Origin: a virus | Reading direction: 5' to 3' (one strand) | IMG/VR virus record: IMGVR_UViG_3300038321_000157 | Coordinates: 7,929-71,928 of that record | DNA: 64,000 nt | Part shown: positions 221 to 16,046 of the stretch, piece after piece | How positions within the stretch are numbered: position 1 is the first letter of the stretch | Layout of the letters: every line of letters starts with the position of its first letter | Notes under the pieces: generated by a model | Told to the model about the DNA's origin: nothing | The model's database searches: none | The model's input: only the letters and a program-made list of their open reading frames with translations | Position numbers and translations under genes: made by a program

Positions 221-589
221 ATGTGTATGGCAACAATATTATCATTTAACTTACTTGAAACAGTGACTACAATAAGAAAAACAAGTAAAGATTTAAACGA
301 ACAATTATCTACCATAGATAAAACTATTTGTGATTTAGAACACGAAATTATGCTTAATAAATTTGATGTATGCAGAGGATATAAGAAATTCAAACAGCTT
401 CAAGATGCTCTGATAGAAAGACGTCAGATCAAAGACGAATGGGAGTTAATTCAACCTTTAATTGCTTATACTGGAACTATAGAAAAGAAAGTAAATGAAT
501 TACATAATACAATTAATGAAAGAGAAAGTAAATATGAGAATAGAAAATATACACCAAGAGTTTTGAAAGGAGAATTAAATGCTAGTTGA
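221..589 (+). CDS. Hypothetical coiled-coil protein
   Basis: ORF track 206..589; start moved to ATG 221 after GGAGGT at 208-213. Confidence 0.7.
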   Translation: MCMATILSFNLLETVTTIRKTSKDLNEQLSTIDKTICDLEHEIMLNKFDVCRGYKKFKQLQDALIERRQIKDEWELIQPLIAYTGTIEKKVNELHNTINERESKYENRKYTPRVLKGELNAS

Positions 590-1185
590 TTGAAACCTGG
601 ATTTTAGTATTTTTATATAGTTGGAAGAAAAAATTAAACATTAAATTAATCTTTTATGATTGGCCTATATATTTCCCGCTGATTTGTTTAATAGGATACA
701 TAGTTTTTGAAGTAATGATATTTAATGACCAATACTGGATTACACAATATGGAACTATTATTAAACCAGTAACTTTGCTTAGTTATTTTGGATTGATGTA
801 CAAATATAATCTTTATTATTCGCAGAATAAAAGTAAAAGTGAATTAGTAAGGTTTTTAATTTCTCCTTTTATAATAGGAATTATTTTCTTGGTTTTAGGT
901 TACATTTTCAACGGAATAGCGATTTTAAGCAACAATGGCCACATGCCGGTATTTCCCTCTTATACATATTTTACAAATTATACGGATATATCTAGTTTTA
1001 CTGAAGATAGTTTTTATATCTTAGGGGATCATACAAGTAAAGCGATTTGGGCTTGCGATTGTATAGACATTTTTTATTCCAATTTAAGTTTGGGTGATGT
1101 ATTCGTAAGAATATATGTTGCAATTTTGATTTATTTTTCGATAAAAAGAGTGAACGAAAAACATAAAATAAATATAAATGTGTAG
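586..1185 (+). CDS. DUF5317-like membrane protein
   Basis: Several hydrophobic segments; 'NGIAILSNNGHMPV' and 'LSLGDVFV' match the family pattern as recalled. Confidence 0.65.
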   Translation: MIETWILVFLYSWKKKLNIKLIFYDWPIYFPLICLIGYIVFEVMIFNDQYWITQYGTIIKPVTLLSYFGLMYKYNLYYSQNKSKSELVRFLISPFIIGIIFLVLGYIFNGIAILSNNGHMPVFPSYTYFTNYTDISSFTEDSFYILGDHTSKAIWACDCIDIFYSNLSLGDVFVRIYVAILIYFSIKRVNEKHKININV

Positions 1186-1205: not shown

Positions 1206-1235
1206 TAATATGTAATTAGAAAATATTACATATTA
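1206..1235. promoter_or_regulatory. Perfect 11-bp inverted repeat directly before the RBS of the receptor-agrD operon (candidate operator or hairpin)
   Basis: TAATATGTAAT (1206-1216), 8-nt spacer, ATTACATATTA (1225-1235); RBS AAGGAG follows at once. Confidence 0.5.
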
Positions 1236-1250: not shown

Positions 1251-2051
1251 ATGCATAGTGATATATTTAATGCAGTAATGAATACCATATTCGTAAGTAT
1301 TCCAGAAAGTGTTTTATGGATTTTATTCGTATTTTTTCTCATGAAACGGAATGATTTATTGGATGTTTATAGATGGCAATATAATTTGAAACAAATTATG
1401 ATTGCGGCAATTCCAGTATCTATAAGTATAAATGTAATGAGATATATTCTACACGTAAATAATTTAATAAATTTTATTATTATAGAAATAATGATGATTA
1501 TATTAATTGTTTACATAATTAAAAAAAATAATTTTTTAAATGAAAAGATTAGTTATTTAAAAATAGTAATTTATGTAATGCTTGCGGATTTTATTATGAT
1601 TTTTACCACAGAAGGATTATTAGGTTTAATTATAATTCAAATGTTGCATATGAGTATAGATGTAATTAATAATAATATTGGATTAAATATAACTTTATCA
1701 CTTATACCAAGGACGGTACAAATTTTATTAATTAGTTTATGTATATATAAACAAAACGTTGGTAAAATGATTAATTATGTTGAATTAATTTTAAGAAATA
1801 AGATATTGTCAATATCAATGAGTGTGTTTTTAATAACAGTGATAATATCAAATTTTATTTTGCAAAGATTTGTTATGGCAACAAATTATTTAGATCATTA
1901 TATTATGTCAATTAAAATTGCTCTAATAGTATTAATGATAATAATCCCAATAATTATGATCGGGAGTTATATTTTTTCGATCTATAATCTTTTGTGGATT
2001 AATATAAAAACACAAAAAGAGAAAGATAATATGTTGAATGACATATATTAA
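1251..2051 (+). CDS. Polytopic membrane protein (about 7 TM) resembling an AgrC-type sensor domain, with no kinase domain
   Basis: 266 aa, hydrophobic almost throughout; no H-box or N/G1/G2 boxes; stop codon abuts the agrD RBS. Confidence 0.55.
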   Translation: MHSDIFNAVMNTIFVSIPESVLWILFVFFLMKRNDLLDVYRWQYNLKQIMIAAIPVSISINVMRYILHVNNLINFIIIEIMMIILIVYIIKKNNFLNEKISYLKIVIYVMLADFIMIFTTEGLLGLIIIQMLHMSIDVINNNIGLNITLSLIPRTVQILLISLCIYKQNVGKMINYVELILRNKILSISMSVFLITVIISNFILQRFVMATNYLDHYIMSIKIALIVLMIIIPIIMIGSYIFSIYNLLWINIKTQKEKDNMLNDIY

Positions 2052-2064
2052 AGGAGGTGAAATT

Positions 2065-2184
2065 TTGAAAAAATATCGTTTAATTGCAGGTTTAATAGGC
2101 ATCATAGCTATTGTTGGTGCTGGCATGGTGGCATCTCATACCCTATTCAACGAACCCCGCATCCCCTCCATGCTTTCTAAGTAA
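2065..2184 (+). CDS. agrD: AgrD-like cyclic lactone autoinducer propeptide MKKYRLIAGLIGIIAIVGAGMVASHTLFNEPRIPSMLSK (39 aa; not in ORF track)
   Basis: RBS AAGGAGGTGA then TTG; basic/hydrophobic leader, S-x-x-L-F core, x-E-P-x-x-P-x-x-L tail as in clostridial AgrD; AgrB lies 1.4 kb downstream. Confidence 0.85.
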   Translation: MKKYRLIAGLIGIIAIVGAGMVASHTLFNEPRIPSMLSK

Positions 2185-2210
2185 TTAAAATACCCTATCA
2201 ATACTCTAAA

Positions 2211-2248
2211 TTCTGTGCAGATTAATTTTTTAACTCTTCTGCACAGAA
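2211..2248 (+). terminator. 11-bp stem-loop after agrD (likely terminator)
   Basis: TTCTGTGCAGA (2211-2221) / TCTGCACAGAA (2238-2248). Confidence 0.55.
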
Positions 2249-2278
2249 TAATAATATAAAAATATCACCAAAAAACTA

Positions 2279-2307
2279 TTGCAATATTTTCCAGTAAATG
2301 ATACAAT
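2279..2307 (+). promoter_or_regulatory. Sigma-A-type promoter for the mazF-fusion/agrB operon
   Basis: TTGCAA-17 nt-TACAAT with extended TG. Confidence 0.7.
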
Positions 2308-2345
2308 GAAAATGTAAAATAAATAATATAGAAGGAGTGATTTAA

Positions 2346-3230
2346 ATGACAATGGCAATGAATATTTTGAATGAAGTGGAATTTAAAAAGAATATGGAAA
2401 ATGCAAAAACAGAATTATCAATTGCGCTAAAAATAGCAATTGGTCATCGTTCTGTTTCTCAGTTTGCAAGAGATTGTAGAATAGTAGATGTAACATTAAT
2501 CAATGATATTTTAAAAAGAAAGATTAATGTGTTACCTGAAAGAGATTTTTTAAGAATTGTTGAAAGAACCAGTGAAGGAAGGGTAACTTATACATATCTA
2601 TGTGAGATATGTGGTTACACCAAATGTGATCCTAATGAAGATAGGAGTTGGGCAAATTATCATCCAGAGCGTGGAAGTATTTATATGGCTGATTTAGGAT
2701 TGAATAACATGGATTCTGAACAAGAAGGGGTTAGACCTTGCCTTATTATTTCAAATAACATGGGGAATAAACATAGTAGTATAATAACAATTGCACCATT
2801 AACTTCAAAAAGGAAACATAGGTTGCCTGTCCATGTTGATTTAACAGTTCAGGATGGTATGAGACAGAATTCCATTATATGTTTAGAGCAGACTAGAGTG
2901 GTTTCTAAACGTAGGTTATTTTACAATGGTACACCCATGAAGATATTGAAATTAACTGAAGAAAAAATAAATGAAGTTAATATAGCTATTGAAAAGCAAT
3001 TCGGGATTATTGATTTAATGTATAATCCAGATCATGCATTTGAATTGGTAGGACAGATCGAAACACTTGAACATAATATAAAAACGAAAAAAATTAAACC
3101 TTCCTTCTTATCTGAATTGCTTAATGGTAAACGTAAGGAATTAGTTACGTATTGTAAGAAATATAATAGGAACGAAAAGACGATTATTAATAATTACACA
3201 GGGACAAGAGATTTTGTGCCTGTAAATTAG
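2346..3230 (+). CDS. mazF: N-terminal HTH-like domain fused to a PemK/MazF endoribonuclease, with a C-terminal helical extension
   Basis: RGSIYMADL..SEQEGVRPCLIISNNMGN..IAPLTS..LPVHV..SIICLEQTRVVSKRRL aligns by eye with B. subtilis EndoA, catalytic Arg (VRP) and Thr (LTS) kept; N-terminal 'AIGHRSVSQFARDC' is XRE-like. Confidence 0.85.
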   Translation: MTMAMNILNEVEFKKNMENAKTELSIALKIAIGHRSVSQFARDCRIVDVTLINDILKRKINVLPERDFLRIVERTSEGRVTYTYLCEICGYTKCDPNEDRSWANYHPERGSIYMADLGLNNMDSEQEGVRPCLIISNNMGNKHSSIITIAPLTSKRKHRLPVHVDLTVQDGMRQNSIICLEQTRVVSKRRLFYNGTPMKILKLTEEKINEVNIAIEKQFGIIDLMYNPDHAFELVGQIETLEHNIKTKKIKPSFLSELLNGKRKELVTYCKKYNRNEKTIINNYTGTRDFVPVN

Positions 3231-3244
3231 GAGGTTGATAATAA

Positions 3245-3544
3245 ATGATTGATGAGTTAGAAATTAAAAGTTTTGATGCTAGGTTTGGAACCAGATCAAA
3301 AGTGTTTCAATGCACTAATACGATTGTTATAGAAACACCTTTAGACAGTTGGATTGTAAAAGTTACGAACAGACAAACCAGACCACTATGTTTATTGCAT
3401 AAGAACAAATTTGGAAGAATAAATAAATACCACATTCAATCTTGGAAGACAAAAATGTTTCATGTCTATGATTCTATTTACAAACATAAAGGGATGCATC
3501 TTGTAGGTGCACCCAATACATATAAAGGTAGTCAAATAAAATGA
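3245..3544 (+). CDS. Hypothetical protein translationally coupled to agrB
   Basis: GGAGG RBS; ATGA overlap with agrB. Confidence 0.7.
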   Translation: MIDELEIKSFDARFGTRSKVFQCTNTIVIETPLDSWIVKVTNRQTRPLCLLHKNKFGRINKYHIQSWKTKMFHVYDSIYKHKGMHLVGAPNTYKGSQIK

Positions 3545-4134
3545 AAAAATATTTTCGGTACTTATACACCTTAAAATACATTAAATTACTCGCATATATG
3601 TCAGCAAGATCATTACAATTATCACGTAACGAGTCTCATAAACACAAATATATGTATTATTATGGATTTAATATTTTATATGGAGCAATTAATAAAGGAA
3701 CACTCCTTATACTGGCAGGATTATTATTCCATGCGTTACCCCAAATCCTTGTTACTACACTTGCGTTTATGTCACTTAGGGGTTTTATAGGGGGATTACA
3801 TTTTGATTCATATACAAAATGTGCCTGGATTTCATTGTTATGTTTGGTTTCAATAGGGTTATTAGCAAAATATATTCCTTACAATAATATTATAAATTTA
3901 TGTGTGTTTATTTATCTGTTAGTTATTGCTTTCATTTATGCACCAGTTGAACATAAAAATAGACCACTAACAGATAAGAAAAAAATAACTTTTAAATATG
4001 TATCCATTGTAATAATTTTTGCACTATATAGTGCTCAGGCCATAGTTAATAACGATAATATTAGTAATTGCATCATGTACGGTGTTTTATTATCGGGCAT
4101 TATCGCATTGCCAATATTTAAGAAAGTCAAATAA
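3541..4134 (+). CDS. agrB: Accessory gene regulator B-type membrane peptidase/cyclase
   Basis: YGFNIL, LRGFIGGLH..S..KC (catalytic His and Cys), IYAPVEHKNRPL; multi-TM. Confidence 0.9.
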   Translation: MKKYFRYLYTLKYIKLLAYMSARSLQLSRNESHKHKYMYYYGFNILYGAINKGTLLILAGLLFHALPQILVTTLAFMSLRGFIGGLHFDSYTKCAWISLLCLVSIGLLAKYIPYNNIINLCVFIYLLVIAFIYAPVEHKNRPLTDKKKITFKYVSIVIIFALYSAQAIVNNDNISNCIMYGVLLSGIIALPIFKKVK

Positions 4135-4338: not shown

Positions 4339-4566
4339 ATGTCAAATTCAAATCAAATGGTATGGGTTATTCGAAATAGGGATGGGTATTTTGTTAATGC
4401 AGACTTCAGAGCGTTATTTAATGGAAGAACAACAGGATTTGTTGGATATACAAATAAGGATAGGATGCAAAAGGATTTAGATAAGTTAGGTGAATTAGGT
4501 GAAGGGTATTATAGCGAACAGGTTTGTTTGAATGAGATTCCTAAAGGGGTAAGGATATATACATAA
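4339..4566 (+). CDS. Hypothetical protein
   Basis: ORF with AGGAGG RBS. Confidence 0.65.
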   Translation: MSNSNQMVWVIRNRDGYFVNADFRALFNGRTTGFVGYTNKDRMQKDLDKLGELGEGYYSEQVCLNEIPKGVRIYT

Positions 4567-4638: not shown

Positions 4639-5379
4639 TTGGGTAGAAAAATAATAGATTTAACGGGAATGAATTTTGAGAAATTAACAGTAATAAAAAG
4701 AGCAGAAGATTATATTTCTCCAAATGGGAAAACACAAACACAATGGTTATGTGAATGTAGTTGTAAAGATAAAAATAAAATTATTGTAACAATGGGACAT
4801 TTAACTTCTGGAAAAACTAAATCATGTGGGTGTTTAAGAAAAGAAAATATGAGTAAATTATTTAAGAAATATAACACATATGATTTAACTGGAGAATATG
4901 GAGTAGGTTATACATTAAAAAATGAACCATTTTATTTTGATTTAGAAGATTATGATTTAATTAAGGATTATTGCTGGAGTTTAGATAAAAATAAATATGT
5001 TATAACAACTTTAAACAAAGAAAAAGAAAAAACTACTTTACTTATGCATCGTTTAATCACAAATTGTTCTAATGATATGGATGTAGACCATAAATTTCAT
5101 GATCATTGGGATAATAGGAAAGAGTTTTTAAGGATAGCAACAAGAAGTCAAAATGGTATGAATAGTGGTTTACAATCTAATAATACTAGTGGTGTAACAG
5201 GAGTATATTGGAACTCGAAAAATGAAAAATGGAGAGCACAAATAACAATAAATAATAATAAAATACAATTAGGGTCTTTTGATAATTTTGAAGAAGCTGT
5301 TGAAATTCGTAAACAAGCTGAAATAGAATATTTTGGTGAATATCAATATAAAAACATTAAATCATCTGGGAAAAAATAA
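4639..5379 (+). CDS. HNH-AP2 homing endonuclease with N-terminal Cys module
   Basis: DLTG..WLCECSC..SCGC; MHRLI..VDH..DNRKEFLR; AP2 signature SGVTGVYW..KWRAQI..LGSFD..EA. Confidence 0.85.
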   Translation: MGRKIIDLTGMNFEKLTVIKRAEDYISPNGKTQTQWLCECSCKDKNKIIVTMGHLTSGKTKSCGCLRKENMSKLFKKYNTYDLTGEYGVGYTLKNEPFYFDLEDYDLIKDYCWSLDKNKYVITTLNKEKEKTTLLMHRLITNCSNDMDVDHKFHDHWDNRKEFLRIATRSQNGMNSGLQSNNTSGVTGVYWNSKNEKWRAQITINNNKIQLGSFDNFEEAVEIRKQAEIEYFGEYQYKNIKSSGKK

Positions 5380-5418: not shown

Positions 5419-5448
5419 TTGACATTTTGTATATACTGGTAATATAAT
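5419..5448 (+). promoter_or_regulatory. Sigma-A-type promoter for the DGQHR/repressor operon
   Basis: TTGACA-18 nt-TATAAT. Confidence 0.55.
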
Positions 5449-5470: not shown

Positions 5471-6799
5471 GTGTCAATAATGGTTGGAAACAAAGAAGAA
5501 CAATTAAAAAATAAACTAAAAAATGTTATCCGTGAATTTGGGTATGACAATAGTACAAAGCAGTTTGTAATGGATGAATTTAAATTACGTAATTTATCAT
5601 CCTTAAGAGCTGCTTGGGTTTTTTCTGAAAATCTTGATCTGGATACTCTAACAGAATCAGAAGATGATGCCCAATTTTTATATCTATTTTCTTTTGCTCT
5701 TAATAAAGCATTAAAAGAAAAAGATATAAATATTTTGAATGATTATCAGAGTTATTTTACCAGTGTTGAAATTAGTGAATGGGAAAATTATAAAGAAGAA
5801 AAAGAATCTGAAGATATTTTCCCTTATAATTTAAAAGATGTACAAGAAATTGTTCCTGGTCAACAATGGCAAACTAAACTTACTATACAACAATTTAATG
5901 AATTATATAATGTATTACTTTGGAATCCCAACTCACAAAGGGGATTTAAGGTAACGAAAAAAGCAATTAGAATTAATGAAAATCCTCTAAAGGTTAAAGA
6001 AATAGCAGAGAATATACTTGCAGGAACATATTATCCTGACCATATTAAAATTAATGTTGTAAAAGACGAAAATAAACCTATTTATAATCCTAAAACGAGA
6101 ATGTTAACTTTAAGGGAAGGGACAAAACTTAATATTTGGGACGGTCAACATCGAAAATCTGCAAGTGCATTAGTCTTGGTAGAAAATCCCGATATAGATT
6201 TTACATGGCCTATAGATATCACAAATCTATCAGAGATTGAAACTCACAATGCGATGGTACAAATCAACAAACAAAGTCCAATTAAACTTGATGTTATATC
6301 TACTAAAGACTATTCCAAAAATGAAAATTTAGTGCTTGATAAGATTATGGATAGTCGTGGAGATTTAGCAAGCGCAACAAAAGATACAGATGCATTTGTA
6401 AAGTCAGATCGTGCTTTAACCACAAAACCTATCCTTGCCGAAGCTATTAAAGATAATTACGATAATTTAGATTCAGCTATGCAACGTGATGAAGTTGCTA
6501 AATGGATAGTTGAGTTTACAAACTACCTCATGGGTGTCTACTCAGATGAGTTTATTGTCAATCCTTATGAAGTAAAGAAAACTTCCTATATTAATAACCT
6601 AAATATGTTCTATGGATATATTGCTCTTTCCGCAATATTGAAAGATAATAAAAATTGGAAAGAAATTCTTAAACAAAAAATTAACTCAATTGATTTTTCC
6701 GTAGACAATCCTATGTGGCGAGAAATAGGGATTATCAAAGAAAACAAAATTGGTAAACCTACAAAGAATAAACTCTATAAACTTTTTATGGAGGTGTAA
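5471..6799 (+). CDS. DGQHR (DndB-like) domain protein, SPbeta YopQ-like
   Basis: IWDGQHR motif; lies directly upstream of the MrpR-like gene as in SPbeta. Confidence 0.75.
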   Translation: MSIMVGNKEEQLKNKLKNVIREFGYDNSTKQFVMDEFKLRNLSSLRAAWVFSENLDLDTLTESEDDAQFLYLFSFALNKALKEKDINILNDYQSYFTSVEISEWENYKEEKESEDIFPYNLKDVQEIVPGQQWQTKLTIQQFNELYNVLLWNPNSQRGFKVTKKAIRINENPLKVKEIAENILAGTYYPDHIKINVVKDENKPIYNPKTRMLTLREGTKLNIWDGQHRKSASALVLVENPDIDFTWPIDITNLSEIETHNAMVQINKQSPIKLDVISTKDYSKNENLVLDKIMDSRGDLASATKDTDAFVKSDRALTTKPILAEAIKDNYDNLDSAMQRDEVAKWIVEFTNYLMGVYSDEFIVNPYEVKKTSYINNLNMFYGYIALSAILKDNKNWKEILKQKINSIDFSVDNPMWREIGIIKENKIGKPTKNKLYKLFMEV

Positions 6800-6802
6800 A
6801 TA

Positions 6803-7837
6803 TTGATGATTGAATTTCAAATTGACTCTGAAATTAAGCAAGAATATTTACAAACAAAACCAACTGCAACCGCAGAATCAGATGCTTTTATACTTCGTGA
6901 TTTTGATAATTATGAAGTACAGGTTGGTAAACAAGTTTACAATCTTAACATTTCTGAATTAAATGAAATGTTTGCTACATTGCGTAATTCTTCTAAACGC
7001 ACAGCACAAAAAAATAAATCAATATTAACCAACTACATTGATTTCTGTGTTGCAAAGAAAATTGTTCCCCATATGGAAAACAGAGCAAAATATATTGATG
7101 TTGAAAAATTTGTGTCTCGACAAGCACTATTGAACAAATTTATTTCAAAAGAAAAAGTAAGAGAATATGTAAATCTCTTATATAATTCACAAGACCAATT
7201 ACTCTTATGGTTGTTATTTATAGGAGTAAGGGGTAGAACTACTGAAGATGGCACTATGGAAGAGGTTATAAATTTAACAATAGATGATGTTAATTTTAAA
7301 GAAAATATGCTTACTCTTAGACAGAATGATGGTAAATTCCGTTTATTAGATGATGTACCTGACCACATTATAGATTTAATTAGAGAGACATACGAGCAAG
7401 AATATTATATCGAGAATAATGGTGAGATGACTAATAATCCTAGAGTGCCTAACCCTAGAAAAAGTATTATTAACAAAACTGGTGAATCAAAAACAAGAGA
7501 AACAATAGATAGATATATTTTTAGAATACCAGGAAAGAGTAAATTTGAAAAATTTAGTCCTGCTTTGCTTAACTCACGGATGATTAAAATTCAAAAGGTC
7601 GTTGACAACCGATACGTAACCTGGAGCAGTTTGTATTTTTCAGGTATGTTGCAATCGTGTATAGATATTTACAAAGAGAAGGGTGAAATCACTGATAGAG
7701 ATTTTGATAACATCTGTCTTAGATATAATTACGGAGTATCAGAAGAACCAATTGGTAAGTTAAATATTAAACAAAGTGCATATTGGTTCGTTTTAAAAGA
7801 TTTGTTTTTGCAATACAAGGAGTTACTACAATTATGA
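6803..7837 (+). CDS. MrpR/YopR-like master repressor (tyrosine-recombinase fold with degenerate catalytic motif)
   Basis: SAM-like N-terminus; 'QDQLLLWLLFIGVRG..EEVINLTIDDV' recombinase box I; box II reads 'TWSSLYFSG' with no H-x-x-R. Confidence 0.75.
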   Translation: MMIEFQIDSEIKQEYLQTKPTATAESDAFILRDFDNYEVQVGKQVYNLNISELNEMFATLRNSSKRTAQKNKSILTNYIDFCVAKKIVPHMENRAKYIDVEKFVSRQALLNKFISKEKVREYVNLLYNSQDQLLLWLLFIGVRGRTTEDGTMEEVINLTIDDVNFKENMLTLRQNDGKFRLLDDVPDHIIDLIRETYEQEYYIENNGEMTNNPRVPNPRKSIINKTGESKTRETIDRYIFRIPGKSKFEKFSPALLNSRMIKIQKVVDNRYVTWSSLYFSGMLQSCIDIYKEKGEITDRDFDNICLRYNYGVSEEPIGKLNIKQSAYWFVLKDLFLQYKELLQL

Positions 7838-8223
7838 TCTTAGAAACAATGTGGCAAAGATATAAAATACTAATATATCTAAAAAGTGAATTAGTGAAGA
7901 AAGGGTATAATTTTAAATCCCTTACTTATATCAATTCACAGATTGAATTATTAAATATATTAATCAAAGAAGAAAGTTTTAATCAATTAGAACAAATACT
8001 CCGCAAAACGAATTATAGACTTCTTAAACAAATAGAAAAAGGTGAGGAAAATTTAGTGAGTATTGTTAATCATCCTGAACAATGGAGATTATGTAAAATT
8101 GATGAACATTGTAATGAATGGTTAAATAATAACTCACTTATTTTTTCCACAGAACGAGGAGAATTTTTAGCATTTACTCAAAGTGAGTATGGACAACAAT
8201 ATATTAATAATAAATGGCAGTAA
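7834..8223 (+). CDS. Hypothetical protein
   Basis: ORF track 7783..8223; ATG 7834 overlaps the previous stop (ATGA). Confidence 0.65.
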   Translation: MILETMWQRYKILIYLKSELVKKGYNFKSLTYINSQIELLNILIKEESFNQLEQILRKTNYRLLKQIEKGEENLVSIVNHPEQWRLCKIDEHCNEWLNNNSLIFSTERGEFLAFTQSEYGQQYINNKWQ

Positions 8224-8240
8224 AGAAAGGATTGATATAA

Positions 8241-8636
8241 ATGAATATAGGTCAAAAAATCAATCAATTATTTGAACGATCTGGATATAAAAACTATGCT
8301 GATTGGGGTAAGGCAATGGGGTTGCCTGGAGATTGGTTACTTGATCTTAAAAAGAAAGATACTATAAAGACTGTAGATATTACACGTTTAATAACTATTG
8401 CTGAATATAATCAAATTACTCTTGATGAACTATTAAAAGACAATAATGATAATTATATCCTTGACATTAATAGCGGCATGGAAGATAATGACATATATAA
8501 GCTATTAGGTCAAATTCAAACGCAATTAGAAGAAAATGAAGTAAAATTTAATGGTTTTATAATGAATAAGGAAAGTAAAGAAATAACTTATGATGTAATA
8601 GACGTATTAAAAGGATTGATTGGTAATAATTTATAA
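8241..8636 (+). CDS. XRE-family HTH regulator (YopS-like position)
   Basis: MNIGQKINQL..NYADWGKAMGL..ITRLITIAEYNQITLDELL. Confidence 0.7.
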   Translation: MNIGQKINQLFERSGYKNYADWGKAMGLPGDWLLDLKKKDTIKTVDITRLITIAEYNQITLDELLKDNNDNYILDINSGMEDNDIYKLLGQIQTQLEENEVKFNGFIMNKESKEITYDVIDVLKGLIGNNL

Positions 8637-8672
8637 TATTTAAAATTTCACATAGTCATTCAGTAATTCCAC

Positions 8673-8984
8673 ATGCCTAATACATATTTAATAAGAGTGG
8701 AGAATGACAAAGTGAAATTTCAAAAAATTAAAAAAAGAAAAGTATATGAAACTTGGCAACATAAAAATAGAGAAACAGGGTTGGTAAGTTTTATTTTTCA
8801 CATACCAAATGGTAATTACCATTTTTATATTACTTGTTTTAAAAAACGTTGTGGATTAGAGCAATGTATAAAAGATAATTGTGATTTATACGTTTCTTAT
8901 AATTCATTAAAATATGGATTAATGTTTAATACTTTTGATGAATGTAGAGAAGTTGTAATCCATTGGCATAAAGATAGAGGATAA
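8673..8984 (+). CDS. Hypothetical protein
   Basis: ORF track; weak RBS. Confidence 0.45.
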   Translation: MPNTYLIRVENDKVKFQKIKKRKVYETWQHKNRETGLVSFIFHIPNGNYHFYITCFKKRCGLEQCIKDNCDLYVSYNSLKYGLMFNTFDECREVVIHWHKDRG

Positions 8985-9031
8985 GAAGAAGTTCTATCCT
9001 CATTTTTAATTAAAAATATAAAATAAATATG

Positions 9032-9059
9032 TTGACAATGATGCTGAGTGTGGTATTAT
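9032..9059 (+). promoter_or_regulatory. Sigma-A-type promoter opening the accessory-gene array
   Basis: TTGACA-16 nt-TATTAT with extended TG. Confidence 0.65.
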
Positions 9060-9146
9060 TGATATTAAGATATAGATAATTTATGTTAATATAGAATTAG
9101 CATTTGGTGCAGATTTTTGGCTTGAAAAATGGAGCATGAGTGAGTA

Positions 9147-9176
9147 TGAGGGAGATTGAGGGAGATTGAGGGAGGT
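9147..9176 (+). repeat. Three tandem 10-mers TGAGGGAG(A/G)T
   Basis: TGAGGGAGAT TGAGGGAGAT TGAGGGAGGT, followed by a 12-codon mini-ORF at 9184-9222. Confidence 0.85.
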
Positions 9177-9244
9177 AAAATTAATGTCTAAAATAATATC
9201 TGAAAAAATAATTTCAATATGAATGAAAGGAGGATGGTGATTAA

Positions 9245-9739
9245 GTGTATTTGAAAGAATGTGATACAAATATTGAAAACTTTGATGTAGCAGTCAATGT
9301 TTTATACAACGTAGTAGAACAAGAATTTAAAAAATATCCAGGGTTTAAAGGAATAATTTCATATGAAGATATTTTAAAAATATTTTACAGGTCTTCTTCT
9401 GTAGCAAATGTTTATCAAATACCAATAGAGGATTATGTTAAACTTACAATAGAATCTTACATTGCCTATGATACATTTTTGAAAAATGCTTATAATAGTG
9501 TTATACCAATAGACGGAGATAAAGCAGGTGCATATTTAAGGATATTGATTTGTAGATTATGTCGTGATGAAGATGGAAATGAAATTATTAATAATTTTAT
9601 GGAACAATTCAGAAATATTATTGTAGAATTTAATGTTAGGATTAATCCAGAAGAAAAAATCTCTTATTGTGAATCTAAGATTGGCAAAAGAAATGCTTTG
9701 ATTTTATATATTATGTTATCAGATTTTTATGAAATGTAG
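9245..9739 (+). CDS. Hypothetical protein
   Basis: ORF with GGAGG RBS. Confidence 0.65.
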   Translation: MYLKECDTNIENFDVAVNVLYNVVEQEFKKYPGFKGIISYEDILKIFYRSSSVANVYQIPIEDYVKLTIESYIAYDTFLKNAYNSVIPIDGDKAGAYLRILICRLCRDEDGNEIINNFMEQFRNIIVEFNVRINPEEKISYCESKIGKRNALILYIMLSDFYEM

Positions 9740-12187: not shown

Positions 12188-12607
12188 ATGTTTCGTAAAT
12201 TAAAATCACTATGGAATAAACATCAATATAGTATTGAAGAAAATACATATATAAACACCCATAAATTTATTTGGGGAATTAAATCAGCAAGTGATCTGTC
12301 TTATGGTGAACCAGATTTATGTACAATGAATGATATTGATATTGTTTATGATAAAGAAAGTAAAATGTATTCACTTAGTATTGAAACTATATATCAATTT
12401 ACCAATAATCAAGAAGGAGAGAAATTTTATATACAACATTTATTTAATAAATTGACGGAATGGATGGACAGTAAGGGGTATGATACTAATAGGGAATTAG
12501 ATATTTATGATGTTTTTACCAGGGGAATAAATATTAATACTGAGTTTGAATCAATAGAAGAATTGTATGCTACTTTAAAGTTTTTGGTTAAAGGATTTTG
12601 TGATTAA
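12188..12607 (+). CDS. Hypothetical protein
   Basis: Start moved to ATG 12188 after AAGGAG. Confidence 0.7.
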   Translation: MFRKLKSLWNKHQYSIEENTYINTHKFIWGIKSASDLSYGEPDLCTMNDIDIVYDKESKMYSLSIETIYQFTNNQEGEKFYIQHLFNKLTEWMDSKGYDTNRELDIYDVFTRGININTEFESIEELYATLKFLVKGFCD

Positions 12608-12621
12608 AAAAGGAGGCTAAT

Positions 12622-12888
12622 ATGAAAATAGAAAGACAATTTGAAGAAAACGAATGGGTAAAAGAAATTACAGGGAAAGAATTTAGAGAATCAGGTGCAT
12701 TATGGTTTGTTAATTCTATTTTACATCTGTTTGGTATGGCAATTACTTGGAATCCAGATACGGATGAATTAAAAGCTTCTATTGTACGGTATAGGGGTTT
12801 TGACAACAAGTATAATGATAAAGGATATAAGATGCTTAGTAATTATTTAAAAGATAATATAATTGAATTAGAAAAGGATTGTGATTAA
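12622..12888 (+). CDS. Hypothetical protein
   Basis: AGGAGG RBS. Confidence 0.7.
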   Translation: MKIERQFEENEWVKEITGKEFRESGALWFVNSILHLFGMAITWNPDTDELKASIVRYRGFDNKYNDKGYKMLSNYLKDNIIELEKDCD

Positions 12889-12947
12889 ATCATTATAAAA
12901 TCCAGCTTTTATAATGTTATAAAAATAAATATAGGAGGAAGTAAAAA

Positions 12948-13994
12948 ATGTATGGATATAATGAATATTATGATGAGCAGATTTATGAGCCAACGCCTTT
13001 AGATGAATTGTTTATAGAGTATAGAGAGAAATGTAAAACTATCCTTTTAGCATCAGTTCAAAGCGAAATTGATGATATTAAAAACAACAATATTCAACTA
13101 AGAGAAGAAAATCAAAAATTACGAAATGAAGCAAGGCAATTAAAAGAGGAAGTTAAATTATCGAATGAAAAGTGTAAAAATTCTCTATTCATTGATTTAA
13201 TCTCAAACAATATTAATAAAGATAATTTCACTAAATTCCTTGCGGTTGTTTATGAAAAAGATTATGAAGAATCTTGGTCAACAGAAGAAACTCCATTATG
13301 GTTAAGGGTATTAACAGAATATTATTCACACAAAAATGAAATTATTGAAATGTTTAATATTCTTAATATAAAAAGACCAAAAGATATTAATAATTTTAGA
13401 TTGCCTATAGATTGGAATGAAGAAGAATTAGATATCTTTTTTGATACTATGAGAAATCATTATAATTGCAATGGGAATTTCTTTCAATATAATTTGCATT
13501 TTTGGAGTAGTAGTTCTTTGAAATCCGTTAAAGAGCAATGTAATAAAAATTATTCGGAAATACCTTGGCAATATGTATTGAGAAATCCATTATTAAAAAC
13601 AGAAAAGTATCTTAAATTAATGGGACAAAAAATGACTGAAACGCATGGAAATAATTTTGCAAATATTTATAAATATCAAAATTTAAATGAAAATGAAGTA
13701 AAAATTATATTAGATAATATTGATTATGCCAAATTGACAGGATTAAAAAATAATAGTATTGGTAATTTTATTCTGGAATATATACATCTTATAGATAACG
13801 ATGATTTTTTAGATAAGATTTATCCTTTTATTAAAAAGGTATGGAATGAATTTAATTATATCAAACAAATGAAATCGAAATATATTAAAAAATATCTACT
13901 AGAACATAAAGAAGATGCTTTAGGATTGTTAAAAGAAAGTGATAAGTTATCTAAAAAAGATAAAGAAGAAATAATTAAACAATTAATAGATTAA
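12948..13994 (+). CDS. Hypothetical protein with N-terminal coiled coil
   Basis: 348-aa ORF, AGGAGG RBS. Confidence 0.75.
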   Translation: MYGYNEYYDEQIYEPTPLDELFIEYREKCKTILLASVQSEIDDIKNNNIQLREENQKLRNEARQLKEEVKLSNEKCKNSLFIDLISNNINKDNFTKFLAVVYEKDYEESWSTEETPLWLRVLTEYYSHKNEIIEMFNILNIKRPKDINNFRLPIDWNEEELDIFFDTMRNHYNCNGNFFQYNLHFWSSSSLKSVKEQCNKNYSEIPWQYVLRNPLLKTEKYLKLMGQKMTETHGNNFANIYKYQNLNENEVKIILDNIDYAKLTGLKNNSIGNFILEYIHLIDNDDFLDKIYPFIKKVWNEFNYIKQMKSKYIKKYLLEHKEDALGLLKESDKLSKKDKEEIIKQLID

Positions 13995-14029
13995 AACCCC
14001 GATTTTATAACGAGTGAAGGGAGGCAGTT

Positions 14030-14239
14030 ATGAGAGTATTTGAATTAAGTGATACCCAAATAGAAAAAATTAAACAATGGGATAATGCTGAAACTGGTCA
14101 TAAATGCAATGCAAGTAAACGTGGTGACGTTACGGGTGCAAGATTGAGTTATACGTTTATTCCTACTGGATTAGATGATGTTGTCAAAGTTGAATGTGAA
14201 TGCGGTGAGGTATTAGATGTTACTGAAGGTTGGGATTAG
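14030..14239 (+). CDS. Small Cys-containing hypothetical protein
   Basis: GGAGG RBS; HKC...CECG. Confidence 0.7.
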   Translation: MRVFELSDTQIEKIKQWDNAETGHKCNASKRGDVTGARLSYTFIPTGLDDVVKVECECGEVLDVTEGWD

Positions 14240-14285
14240 AATCGTAATCAAATAACCCTTTTAACTCAATATAGAAAGGAGAATT

Positions 14286-14468
14286 ATGGATCGTTTTTTA
14301 TCTTTGTTGCCTTATATTATTGGGGTTCCTTTGTGCATTTTAGCTCCAACTGGTTTTATCATGATGTTCGTTTTTGATAAACCTACCCTTGTTATTATTA
14401 CAATAGCCTATTGTTTATTTTTATTAGGCGTTGGGTTAACACATACGATTAAACAAGTTTTAGATTAA
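14286..14468 (+). CDS. Small 2-TM membrane protein
   Basis: AAGGAG RBS; two hydrophobic stretches. Confidence 0.65.
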   Translation: MDRFLSLLPYIIGVPLCILAPTGFIMMFVFDKPTLVIITIAYCLFLLGVGLTHTIKQVLD

Positions 14469-14518
14469 TTTCAACCAAATTTCTCTTTTGTGTACTTTTT
14501 GAAAGGAAGAATAAATAT

Positions 14519-14704
14519 ATGAAAGTAAAAGACTTCATAAATAAATTAGAAGATATTGGATATAATGACGATACCGAAATAGTTTTTGATTTGAAAAATG
14601 AAGATGGTGAAACATATTCAGATTATTATTGTCAATCAGTATATACCCATATGCCTTTTGTACTTAATGCAATAGGAATTGAGATTGATAGGGTTTACAA
14701 ATAA
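14519..14704 (+). CDS. Hypothetical protein
   Basis: AAGGA RBS. Confidence 0.65.
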   Translation: MKVKDFINKLEDIGYNDDTEIVFDLKNEDGETYSDYYCQSVYTHMPFVLNAIGIEIDRVYK

Positions 14705-14803
14705 TTAAATCCCAATTTAATTTTGGACACGATTTATATTACTATTGCTATTTTTATGTTATTGTATTAAAATTATAATATAAATATACAGAAAGGAGAT
14801 AAT

Positions 14804-15112
14804 ATGGATTACCCTTTTAATTTAAGTAACTCAAAAACCAATTTAGTTGAATTAAATAAAGAATTAGGTTTATGGTTATTAGAAAATAATTTCTCAGACG
14901 ATATAAGAAACAAAATTTTATACTTTATTAATGAATCATATATGCAGGGTTTTAAAAGTGGATATTCTGAATGTAAGATTGTTAATTTTATAGATGAAGA
15001 TACAGATGTTGAAGATGACCCATGTAGATTATGTGGTACTCAAAGATGTTATCCTGAGTATTGCGCTGAATTACATCCAGAATTGAAACATAAAAAAGTT
15101 GAGTTCAAATGA
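14804..15112 (+). CDS. Hypothetical protein with C-terminal Cys cluster
   Basis: AAGGAG RBS; CRLC..RC..YC. Confidence 0.65.
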   Translation: MDYPFNLSNSKTNLVELNKELGLWLLENNFSDDIRNKILYFINESYMQGFKSGYSECKIVNFIDEDTDVEDDPCRLCGTQRCYPEYCAELHPELKHKKVEFK

Positions 15113-15150
15113 ATGTTTTGTGATGATATTAAGGAAGGAGATTATTTACT

Positions 15151-15708
15151 ATAGCAAAAGGTCAATTTAAACCATTTAATAAATATAAAATAAATGGTGA
15201 TGAAACTATAATATATATCGAAAGAAGAGATGGAAGTGTCCAAGAAACAGTTATTGATACAGAAGAATTAGAAAAAATAAAAAGTATTGGTACTCCTTGG
15301 CATAGTCATTGGGCAAGAAAAACAAAATCATATTATTGTAGATGTTGTAAATACATAAGCGAACTAAAATATAGTAAAACAATTCAAATGTCTCGATTTA
15401 TAGTAGACGCACAAGATGATGAAGTAGTTGATCATATAGATCATGACACTATGAATAATAAAAAAGAAAATTTAAGAGTAACCAAATTTATTAAAAATGT
15501 AGCAAATAGAAAAGGTGCAAACTCCAATAATAAAACTGGTGTTAGGAATGTAAATTACATAGAAAAACTAGATGAGTATTGGGTTCAAATTATGAAGAAT
15601 GGAGTAAGATATAGGTGGATATTTCCTGGCGATCAGTTTAAAGAAGCATGTGAATTTGCTGAGATTAAACGAAAAGAGATATTTGGGGAATATGCAGGTA
15701 ACGGATAA
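15151..15708 (+). CDS. HNH-AP2 endonuclease, probable ATA start
   Basis: Frame open from ATA 15151 (AKGQFKPFNKYKI...), 9 nt after AAGGAG; VDHIDH..NNKKENLR; TGVRNV. ORF track begins at 15388. Confidence 0.75.
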   Translation: MAKGQFKPFNKYKINGDETIIYIERRDGSVQETVIDTEELEKIKSIGTPWHSHWARKTKSYYCRCCKYISELKYSKTIQMSRFIVDAQDDEVVDHIDHDTMNNKKENLRVTKFIKNVANRKGANSNNKTGVRNVNYIEKLDEYWVQIMKNGVRYRWIFPGDQFKEACEFAEIKRKEIFGEYAGNG

Positions 15709-15765
15709 AACAGAAATATAAAACCAAAGAATAGTTTTATAATGAAACGAAAGAAGGAATGTTTT

Positions 15766-15939
15766 ATGAAAACTTATATTAGTGAAATAAATAAAAAACA
15801 AAAAGAACACCCATGTAATAATTGTCAAGTAGGATGGGGTAATTATTGTTATGGCAAAGATGATAAAGGTGAATATATAGAAATGACTACATGTGCTGAT
15901 AATTGTAAACATATAGAAGAATTTAATAAATCAATATAA
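15766..15939 (+). CDS. Small Cys-rich protein
   Basis: ATG after AAGGA; CNNC..C..CADNC. Confidence 0.6.
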   Translation: MKTYISEINKKQKEHPCNNCQVGWGNYCYGKDDKGEYIEMTTCADNCKHIEEFNKSI

Positions 15940-16046
15940 ATATTGTATTTTATAAAAAAGCAAAATAAAATTAGCAAAATATAAATTTGTTTAAAAAGTT
16001 TTGGCCAGTACAAAAACTGTATTCTATAATAATTTGGAGGTAAGAT

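Follow-up and report, generated by a model that had tools for sequence, protein, structure and literature searches.

Arbitrium is so far the only worked-out system of phage-to-phage peptide communication, and the finding that in phage phi3T it is connected to the MazF of the host came as a surprise. In phi3T, aimR-aimP-aimX lie directly upstream of the repressor operon, and arbitrium controls host MazF through the MazE mimic AimX, with active MazF favoring lysogeny (PMC10769878; bioRxiv 10.1101/2023.04.27.537455). Within the sroA-F (yopM-R) genes, SroF (YopR, also MrpR) is the master repressor (PMC10516654, PMC10769878). The passage of the preprint that cites Park et al. 2011 gives UACAU as the site of the Bacillus subtilis enzyme, MazF-Bs (bioRxiv 10.1101/2023.04.27.537455). 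Here, we analyzed a 64,000-nucleotide (nt) window, bases 7929 to 71928 of the 139,278-bp IMG/VR virus record IMGVR_UViG_3300038321_000157 (rated complete by CheckV), in which one gene encodes a 294-amino-acid (aa) protein made of a helix-turn-helix (HTH) domain, a MazF domain, and a helical tail. The gene for this fusion belongs to an agr-type peptide cassette that adjoins SroE/SroF-type repressor genes on their upstream side, a position equivalent to that of the arbitrium genes in phi3T. We suggest that the phage-borne MazF may be an effector of the lysis-lysogeny decision and that its HTH domain arrived with the agr-type input.

As in phi3T and SPbeta, a peptide module directly precedes the SroE/SroF genes and a MazF-type RNase appears to be tied to the decision (PMC10769878; bioRxiv 10.1101/2023.04.27.537455; PMC10516654), and the genes of this phage are rich in the MazF motif, an enrichment that the preprint reports for SPbeta and phi3T (bioRxiv 10.1101/2023.04.27.537455). 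The peptide genes, however, are of the AgrB/AgrD rather than the AimR/AimP type, no homologue of AimR, of the MazE mimic AimX, or of phi3T_92-94 was found in this phage, and the MazF is phage encoded and HTH fused, whereas phi3T acts on a host enzyme. Phage-borne AgrB and AgrD are also present in Clostridioides difficile phage phiCDHM1, which has an AgrC kinase and no MazF (PMC4124054); the phage studied here lacks HATPase_c_5 and LytTR domains, and its AgrB gave no match to phiCDHM1 at E ≤ 1e-3. Other phage MazF proteins, those of PHROGs 1936 and 35650 and the PemK-like proteins of 200 to 260 aa in BFVD (e.g., gp171 of Brochothrix phage A9), come from large Firmicute phages and combine MazF with a C-terminal helical extension; they have no HTH domain and no agr context, and none is functionally characterized. 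We found no paper describing a phage HTH-MazF protein or an agr-MazF cassette.

The preliminary description of this locus had read the gene from its sequence as an HTH-MazF-tail fusion with intact catalytic residues, an anatomy borne out by Pfam, by an AlphaFold2 model compared with known structures through VIA and Foldseek, and by alignment. The Pfam PemK_toxin model (PF02452) matched aa 108 to 219 over its full length (positions 1 to 109 of 109) with an E value of 1.6e-21 and 77 bits against a cut-off of 23.1, and the MazF/PemK domain (aa 105 to 223) is complete. In the predicted structure, built from 29 relatives with a mean predicted local distance difference test (pLDDT) score of 83, this domain matched the fold of the S. 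aureus, M. tuberculosis, and B. subtilis MazF structures, with a VIA Z of 17.7 and a root mean square deviation of 2.0 over 113 aligned residues for 4mzm (the SH3-like barrel of MazF/Kid/CcdB) and a Foldseek E value of 2e-9 for B. subtilis YdcE (1ne8). It shares the fold of MazF-Bs/EndoA (YdcE; PDB 1NE8, 4MDX), S. aureus MazF, and B. anthracis MoxT at ∼35% identity over the 115-aa domain. A HMMER alignment to Bacillus MazF placed R130 and T153 at the catalytic Arg25 and Thr48 of MazF-Bs, with S124-E125-Q126 (the SEQ loop), P131 (Pro26), and N141 (Asn36) also retained (residue roles per PMC8634880); the 29 relatives all share R130 and have either Thr or Ser at position 153. The fusion differs from MazF-Bs in its length (294 versus ∼116 aa), its HTH domain and three-helix tail, the replacement of Gly18 by Asp, the lack of an upstream mazE, and its place in a phage-encoded agr-type cassette. 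Its sequence, fold, and catalytic residues show that the fusion truly belongs to the MazF family, and it is predicted to be an RNase, with UACAU(A) as its putative site.

Residues 12 to 92 of the model match XRE/Cro-type five-helix HTH domains (top VIA match, 2ofy; Z 9.3, 76 aligned residues). About 25 further XRE entries, including C.AhdI, SinR, ImmR, and the 434 and P22 repressors, gave Z values of 6.3 to 7.8, each spanning the whole HTH domain; these values are middling, and HigA is among the weaker matches. Because no Pfam HTH model (HTH_3 and relatives) matched the fusion at E ≤ 0.1, the HTH is a fold-level rather than a family-level call. The tail (aa 223 to 293) forms three helices with generic structural matches only. 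All three parts are kept in ∼46 relatives of 275 to 300 aa, down to 36% identity, and a word-indexed search returned no stand-alone N-terminal domain of <160 aa, which would be the sign of a split antitoxin. Most relatives finish in a short hydrophobic motif of low pLDDT, e.g., N-x-Y-(V/A)-C-A-(I/L/M)-COOH, that could be a degron or docking peptide; the window protein ends in ...DFVPVN. In nearer relatives, a CxxC motif (C86, C89) closes the HTH domain.

The genomic setting of the gene is strongly conserved. Based on sequence similarity, the two genes that follow the cassette are homologues of the SPbeta/phi3T pair SroE/SroF (YopQ/YopR), with E values of 7e-15 for the DndB-like protein against SPbeta yopQ (tblastn) and of 7e-23 and 2e-21 for the pair against phi3T_96 and phi3T_97. 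Among related loci, the conserved order is DUF5317, a membrane protein of ∼266 aa, an AgrD-like peptide of ∼40 aa, the fusion, a 99-aa open reading frame (orf99, in most), AgrB, an orf75-like gene, a DndB-like gene, and an MrpR-like gene; where the flanking sequence suffices, the cassette order is identical in all 12 fusion-bearing phage lineages, which represent phages of 40 to 180 kb. More generally, a MazF gene, with or without extra domains, lies just upstream in 17 of the 20 DndB/MrpR loci from viral contigs. The membrane protein accompanies the HTH form of MazF at 12/12 loci and AgrB at 11/12 within the fetched stretch, while six loci with an HTH-less MazF, which is bare in L041, L044, and L053 and tail bearing in L048, L058, and L015, have neither agr genes (0/6) nor the membrane protein (0/6). 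These counts indicate that the association of MazF with the repressor genes is older and more general and that the HTH domain came with the peptide module.

A second MazF paralogue, short at 117 to 140 aa, is encoded at L004 (positions 2123 to 2545), L010 (3298 to 3678), L013 (4044 to 4439, then AgrB), and L053 (2278 to 2631). The isolated, SPbeta-like Psychrobacillus phage Perkons (L061) has its own 120-aa MazF (2003 to 2365) ∼11 kb upstream of an integrase-DndB-MrpR block (12524 to 15957).

The second line of evidence is the distribution of the published MazF-Bs site, which is the motif that repressor genes of this type avoid. We counted k-mers on the sense strand and compared them with shuffles that keep the protein sequence and the codon usage of each gene. 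The repressor set comprised 40 genes of the DndB-like and MrpR-like types, 44.6 kb in all, drawn from 21 loci. In this set, UACAU was the most depleted of 782 pentamers (22 observed versus 48.2 expected; z = −4.7), and in the MrpR genes alone it again ranked first (9 versus 26.2; 544 pentamers). The related loci are mostly at 25 to 56% protein identity, and kinship among them is a caveat on these statistics. UACAUA did not occur in the repressor set at all (12.1 ± 3.3 expected; second of 1,424 hexamers, behind A6), while UACAUU was hardly depleted (17 versus 21.6). The reverse complements of UACAU and UACAUA were at expectation, which argues that avoidance acts at the RNA level. Further depleted words in the repressor set contain GATC or resemble Shine-Dalgarno sequences (GAGGA, AAGGA), and their depletion looks like avoidance of restriction sites and of internal Shine-Dalgarno sequences.

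Outside the repressor pair, the trend is reversed. UACAUA is enriched in the other open reading frames of the same loci (98 versus 66.3 ± 6.6), in the agr cassette (40 versus 30.0), in the mazF genes (7 versus 3.3), and across the whole genome that contains the window (96 versus 65.2). The preliminary description had named depletion of the cleavage motif in phage genes as a check; such depletion holds at the family level for the repressor-pair genes and not genome-wide, where UACAU occurs at 189 sites (172 to 176 expected) and ranks about 900th of the 1,024 pentamers from the most depleted end, so that genome-wide avoidance, as from a host-shut-off RNase, is not seen. A phage rich in the motif with repressor genes free of it is what one would expect from selection by a MazF that tips the decision to the side of repression. 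Genome-wide, UACAUA is ∼3-fold denser in leaders (positions −40 to −1) than in coding sequence, and it ranks first among 60 words of the same composition in leaders, although by a narrow margin (10 versus 9) that is suggestive only.

Based on this synteny and these motif statistics, we infer with a probability of roughly 0.5 that the phage-borne MazF is an effector of the lysis-lysogeny decision whose HTH domain arrived with an agr-type input; which way the enzyme would shift lysogeny, and any link to the peptide, are extrapolated from the same data. Promoter P2 (Table 1) would drive expression of the fusion together with orf99 and AgrB, either at an early stage of infection or in the lysogen. 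Dimers of the MazF domain would cut RNA at UACAU(A), lowering lytic and cassette transcripts and sparing repressor synthesis. Because the motif is abundant in most phage genes and purged from repressor coding sequences, we propose that MazF activity favors or stabilizes lysogeny, the same logic as that published for host MazF in phi3T. The HTH domain, and probably the tail too, would be add-ons acquired with AgrD, AgrB, and the 266-aa membrane protein, and they would most likely place the enzyme under the control of the peptide signal, either by binding DNA at the promoters of the cassette or by contacting other proteins. The gene had previously been regarded as an orphan toxin-antitoxin oddity, a view that gave too little weight to its place in a conserved peptide cassette beside repressor genes. 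The parallel suggestion of a lysogeny switch fared better, in that the cassette lies directly upstream of SroE/SroF-type genes and these alone avoid UACAU(A), and it is retained here as the even-odds effector role.

Were this so, MazF control of lysogeny would be an old and general trait of this phage group and not a Bacillus peculiarity, given that a distant SPbeta-like clade in anaerobes has its own MazF beside the same repressor pair, in many cases HTH fused within an agr-type cassette. Peptide communication would have arisen on two or more separate occasions at one and the same genomic position, and a toxin domain of the toxin-antitoxin type would have been domesticated as a regulatory effector with no classical antitoxin. 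Motif avoidance also offers a cheap genomic read-out for RNase-protected repressor genes.

Several observations weigh against an effector role. The two repressor genes of the window itself contain 1 and 2 UACAU sites, about the expected number, and no UACAUA in their coding bodies, and the leader of the DndB-like gene contains a UACAUA at 5440 to 5445, where cleavage could shorten the mRNA without destroying it. In phi3T, yopQ has 5 UACAU sites and yopR has 1, with no depletion by the same shuffle test, so the avoidance that is strong here is absent there by the same measure. Gly18 of MazF-Bs corresponds to an invariant Asp123 in the fusion family, a substitution that tempers the predicted UACAU(A) specificity. 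The agent that selected for motif avoidance could be host MazF rather than the phage enzyme, and the same avoidance is equally expected if the MazF is a defense expressed by the prophage. No AgrC-type kinase domain (HATPase_c_5), LytTR domain, or AimR, and no recognized peptide receptor, was found in the phage. Finally, this phage is known from metagenomes only, and Brochothrix phage A9, which we take to be virulent, encodes a MazF-plus-tail protein in gp171.

An extended form of the effector model, which we offer tentatively and consider doubtful as a whole, is quorum sensing with no kinase and with an RNase as its output. A cyclic peptide (the predicted SHTLF lactone) would be sensed by the 266-aa protein, possibly together with DUF5317, and this receptor would hold or release the fusion through the HTH domain, the tail, or the C-terminal motif. 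The density of phage outside the cell would then be translated into repressor-sparing RNA cleavage and lysogeny, which would make the cassette a second, independently evolved equivalent of arbitrium.

The main rival to the effector role is prophage defense or addiction, in which the RNase would act on incoming UACAUA-rich phages (by abortive infection or superinfection exclusion) or as a post-segregational killer, with the HTH domain or tail as a fused cis antitoxin. The intact catalytic residues of a MazF family member with no separate antitoxin fit this picture, as does the presence of HigA among the weaker fold matches, and XRE-type HTH domains are common antitoxin modules. Fused toxin-antitoxin proteins such as CapRel-SJ46 and EzeT likewise combine a toxin with a putative regulatory domain and no separate antitoxin gene, although their toxin folds differ from that of the fusion. 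Repressor genes expressed in a lysogen would need to avoid the motif under this explanation too, and B. subtilis MazEF restricts SPbeta and phi3T mutants that lack the antitoxin (bioRxiv 10.1101/2023.04.27.537455). We nevertheless judge defense to be unlikely. No PADLOC model matched the fusion or its neighbors, bare MazFs without HTH or tail at the same position indicate that neutralization in cis is not general, and strict linkage to a peptide cassette and a repressor operon is what one would sooner expect of decision circuitry. An always-on defense would also be costly at induction, since the motif is enriched in the genes of the phage itself.

Less probable again is a reversed type II toxin-antitoxin pair, in which the product of the downstream orf99 would serve as cognate antitoxin and inhibit the MazF domain by binding to it. 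The small orf99 begins 14 nt downstream of the fusion gene in the same operon and is present in at least seven lineages, but it is missing from L007 and L009, which have the full fusion, and from L013, so it is not a universal antitoxin; the restraint by orf99 suggested in the preliminary description could thus apply at most to some lineages. At L048, a relative of it lies ∼1.6 kb from the MazF gene. Through its stop codon, orf99 is translationally coupled to agrB and not to the fusion. The model of its product (pLDDT 85; 15 relatives) resembles no fold specifically, although immunity proteins are among the weak matches, and the protein has no match in Pfam, NCBIfam, or PADLOC and no clear match in the PDB. 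Six invariant polar or aromatic residues (W36, H52, N54, H63, Q65, and H81) are more like a ligand or catalytic site, and ESM Atlas entries show the same fold in fusions with Ada_Zn_binding and RNase_T domains; instead of an antitoxin, orf99 may encode an enzyme or a protein that binds nucleic acid. In the model, H-x-N and H-x-Q stand on adjacent strands. The best PDB match, Mediator Med17 (Z 8.6), is not meaningful, and a Med17-like assignment was rejected. At L011, a 359-aa IS605/TnpB-like gene (8198 to 9277) lies between the fusion and the orf99-like gene.

We regard as improbable a generic growth inhibitor, that is, an early host-takeover RNase that degrades host mRNA and adjoins the repressor genes only through the gene order of the early region. 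Such a role is suggested by matches to the two PHROGs annotated “MazF-like growth inhibitor,” by MazF domains in 82 deposited phage records, and by the PemK-like phage proteins in BFVD. Enrichment of the phage in the canonical motif, however, is the opposite of what a phage-sparing host-shut-off nuclease would select, avoidance is restricted to the repressor pair, and the adjacency of MazF to the repressor in 17 of 20 loci persists at 25 to 56% protein identity. Least probable, and by our estimate very improbable, is that the fusion is mainly a transcription factor whose HTH binds the cassette promoters and whose MazF domain, with little or no nuclease activity, serves in dimerization or peptide binding: the HTH co-occurs with agr genes, the MazF groove naturally binds MazE peptide tails, and receptors that combine an HTH with peptide binding (RRNPP, AimR) are the norm in Gram-positive peptide signaling, but the family has kept the catalytic Arg without exception and always has Thr or Ser in place of the catalytic Thr, neither a recurring operator nor a Pfam HTH match was found, and the avoidance of the motif speaks for a functioning RNase in this system.

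As the preliminary description had noted, no antitoxin open reading frame fits between agrD and the fusion: positions 2184 to 2346 contain a hairpin, a promoter, and a ribosome-binding site, and the sole open reading frame (2230 to 2358, minus strand, 42 aa) overlaps those signals. Genome-wide, there was likewise no MazE match (PF04014, E ≤ 1; antitoxins of the ribbon-helix-helix type were not searched). The fusion is therefore not part of a canonical mazEF module. A classical antitoxin would be unnecessary given timed expression, self-limiting cut sites in its own operon, and/or cross-neutralization by host MazE, and because the operon's own genes carry cut sites, self-limitation is possible. 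The preliminary description had listed restraint in cis, by orf99, by host MazE, or by the peptide pathway; on the present data, the enzyme might be kept in check by timed expression plus self-limitation, by a host MazE, by its HTH or tail in cis, or by orf99. The comparative sequence data argue against orf99 as a general antitoxin and against the extra domains as a general requirement, because bare MazFs at the same position suggest that HTH, tail, and orf99 are not generally needed to tolerate the enzyme.

Table 1. Positions of the cassette, its putative regulatory signals, and the adjoining repressor genes, numbered within the window
Feature	Position	Strand	Remarks
DUF5317 membrane protein	586-1185	+	Pfam DUF5317, E 4e-11; first gene of the cassette
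Promoter-like site P1	1183-1211	+	TAGACA-17-TAATAT, TG; before the membrane-protein and agrD genes
Leader palindrome	1206-1235	+	11 of 12 arm positions pair; holds a UACAUA
266-aa polytopic membrane protein	1251-2051	+	No output domain
AgrD-like precursor	2065-2184	+	39 aa; predicted ring S-H-T-L-F, tail NEPRIPSMLSK; read from sequence
Hairpin after agrD	2210-2249	+	12-bp stem; free energy −17.6 kcal/mol, z −7.8
Promoter P2	2279-2307	+	TTGCAA-17-TACAAT, TG extended −10; predicted to serve the fusion-orf99-agrB operon
HTH-MazF-tail gene (fusion)	2346-3230	+	294 aa; ATG start, GAAGGAG 8 nt upstream
HTH part	∼2379-2621	+
MazF part	∼2658-3014	+
Tail part	∼3015-3227	+
orf99	3245-3544	+	99 aa, small alpha/beta; stop overlaps agrB start (ATGA)
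AgrB peptidase/cyclase	3541-4134	+	Pfam AgrB (PF04647), E 1.2e-36
orf75 small protein	4339-4566	+	Relatives immediately 5′ of the repressor pair in many related loci
DndB-fold protein (SroE/YopQ/phi3T_96 homologue)	5471-6799	+	442 aa; Pfam DndB, E 9e-12
MrpR-type repressor (SroF/YopR/phi3T_97 homologue)	6803-7837	+	344 aa; Pfam MrpR_N_CB, E 8e-14

Among the peptide genes, AgrB shows the His...Cys pair in its translation (GGLHFDSYTKC). The AgrD-like peptide matches no NCBIfam model; it is conserved in relatives (L001, L004), in the window and close relatives it follows the pattern VAS-xxxx-N(E/Q)P(R/K)xPSML in the agr layout, and the L013 peptide has the classical Cys form, CFAVW-HQPKTPK. The 266-aa membrane protein, which had no Pfam, NCBIfam, or PDB match, is a candidate peptide receptor or processing partner. 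Its 71 relatives among 1.8 billion representatives are ∼250 to 325 aa at full length, with shorter ones appearing fragmentary, and none is fused to a kinase (0/71). A language-model lead (0.92) pointed to a “sensory transduction kinase” cluster; with nothing beyond that lead, a truncated AgrC was rejected as an identity for the protein. A CPBP/MroQ-like protease was also dropped, given one member at E 0.036 and missing His motifs.

The DUF5317 gene is syntenic in related loci. At L053, it directly follows a bare MazF with no agr genes, so the partner of DUF5317 may be MazF and not the agr genes. In the window, an HNH/AP2 homing-endonuclease-like gene (4639 to 5379) separates orf75 from the DndB-like gene; L001 lacks it at this site.

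The strong promoter described earlier before the fusion is supported by position, with a sigma-A-type promoter at the place of P2 in nine related loci, but not by its own sequence, since sites of this type are at chance level in the AT-rich window (37 found versus 41 expected). Upstream, TTGACA-17-TAnnAT occurs at the place of P1 in L004, L009, L010, L011, and L013. The UACAUA at 1227 to 1232 lies 3 nt ahead of the Shine-Dalgarno sequence of the membrane-protein gene, inside a leader palindrome that is shared only with the close relative L001. The hairpin after agrD is probably a terminator or insulator; a stem of 10 to 14 bp with divergent sequence stands at this position in seven further loci, and L013 has none. 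In four relatives, ACUACAUA stands downstream of the agrD stop codon and ahead of the hairpin (L004, 5865 to 5872; L006, 6840 to 6847; L010, 6831 to 6838; and L011, ∼6819 to 6826). Searches of the cassette regions and the window for operators of the HTH found no recurring motif, the 12-bp hairpin arms recur in the window no more than by chance, and no repeat family joins the cassette to the repressor region.

The phage is most likely a large, Clostridium-type, SPbeta-like temperate phage. The window DNA is AT rich (27% G+C), and the phage encodes a large DNA polymerase, an NAD ligase, RecJ, exonuclease V, NrdD, tail fiber proteins, and three tyrosine recombinases, the last of which fit a temperate lifestyle. 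Megablast against deposited phages gave no DNA-level match, and no deposited phage record covered ≥80% of the fusion. Among 185,579 species representative genomes, the fusion was found in one, on a 149-kb, phage-sized contig of a Clostridium sp. metagenome-assembled genome. GGACC and GGTCC are almost missing from the coding strands of the whole genome and the related loci (0 and 1 versus 15 and 12 expected), and this scarcity, like the depletion of GATC-containing words in the repressor-pair genes, looks like restriction-site avoidance.

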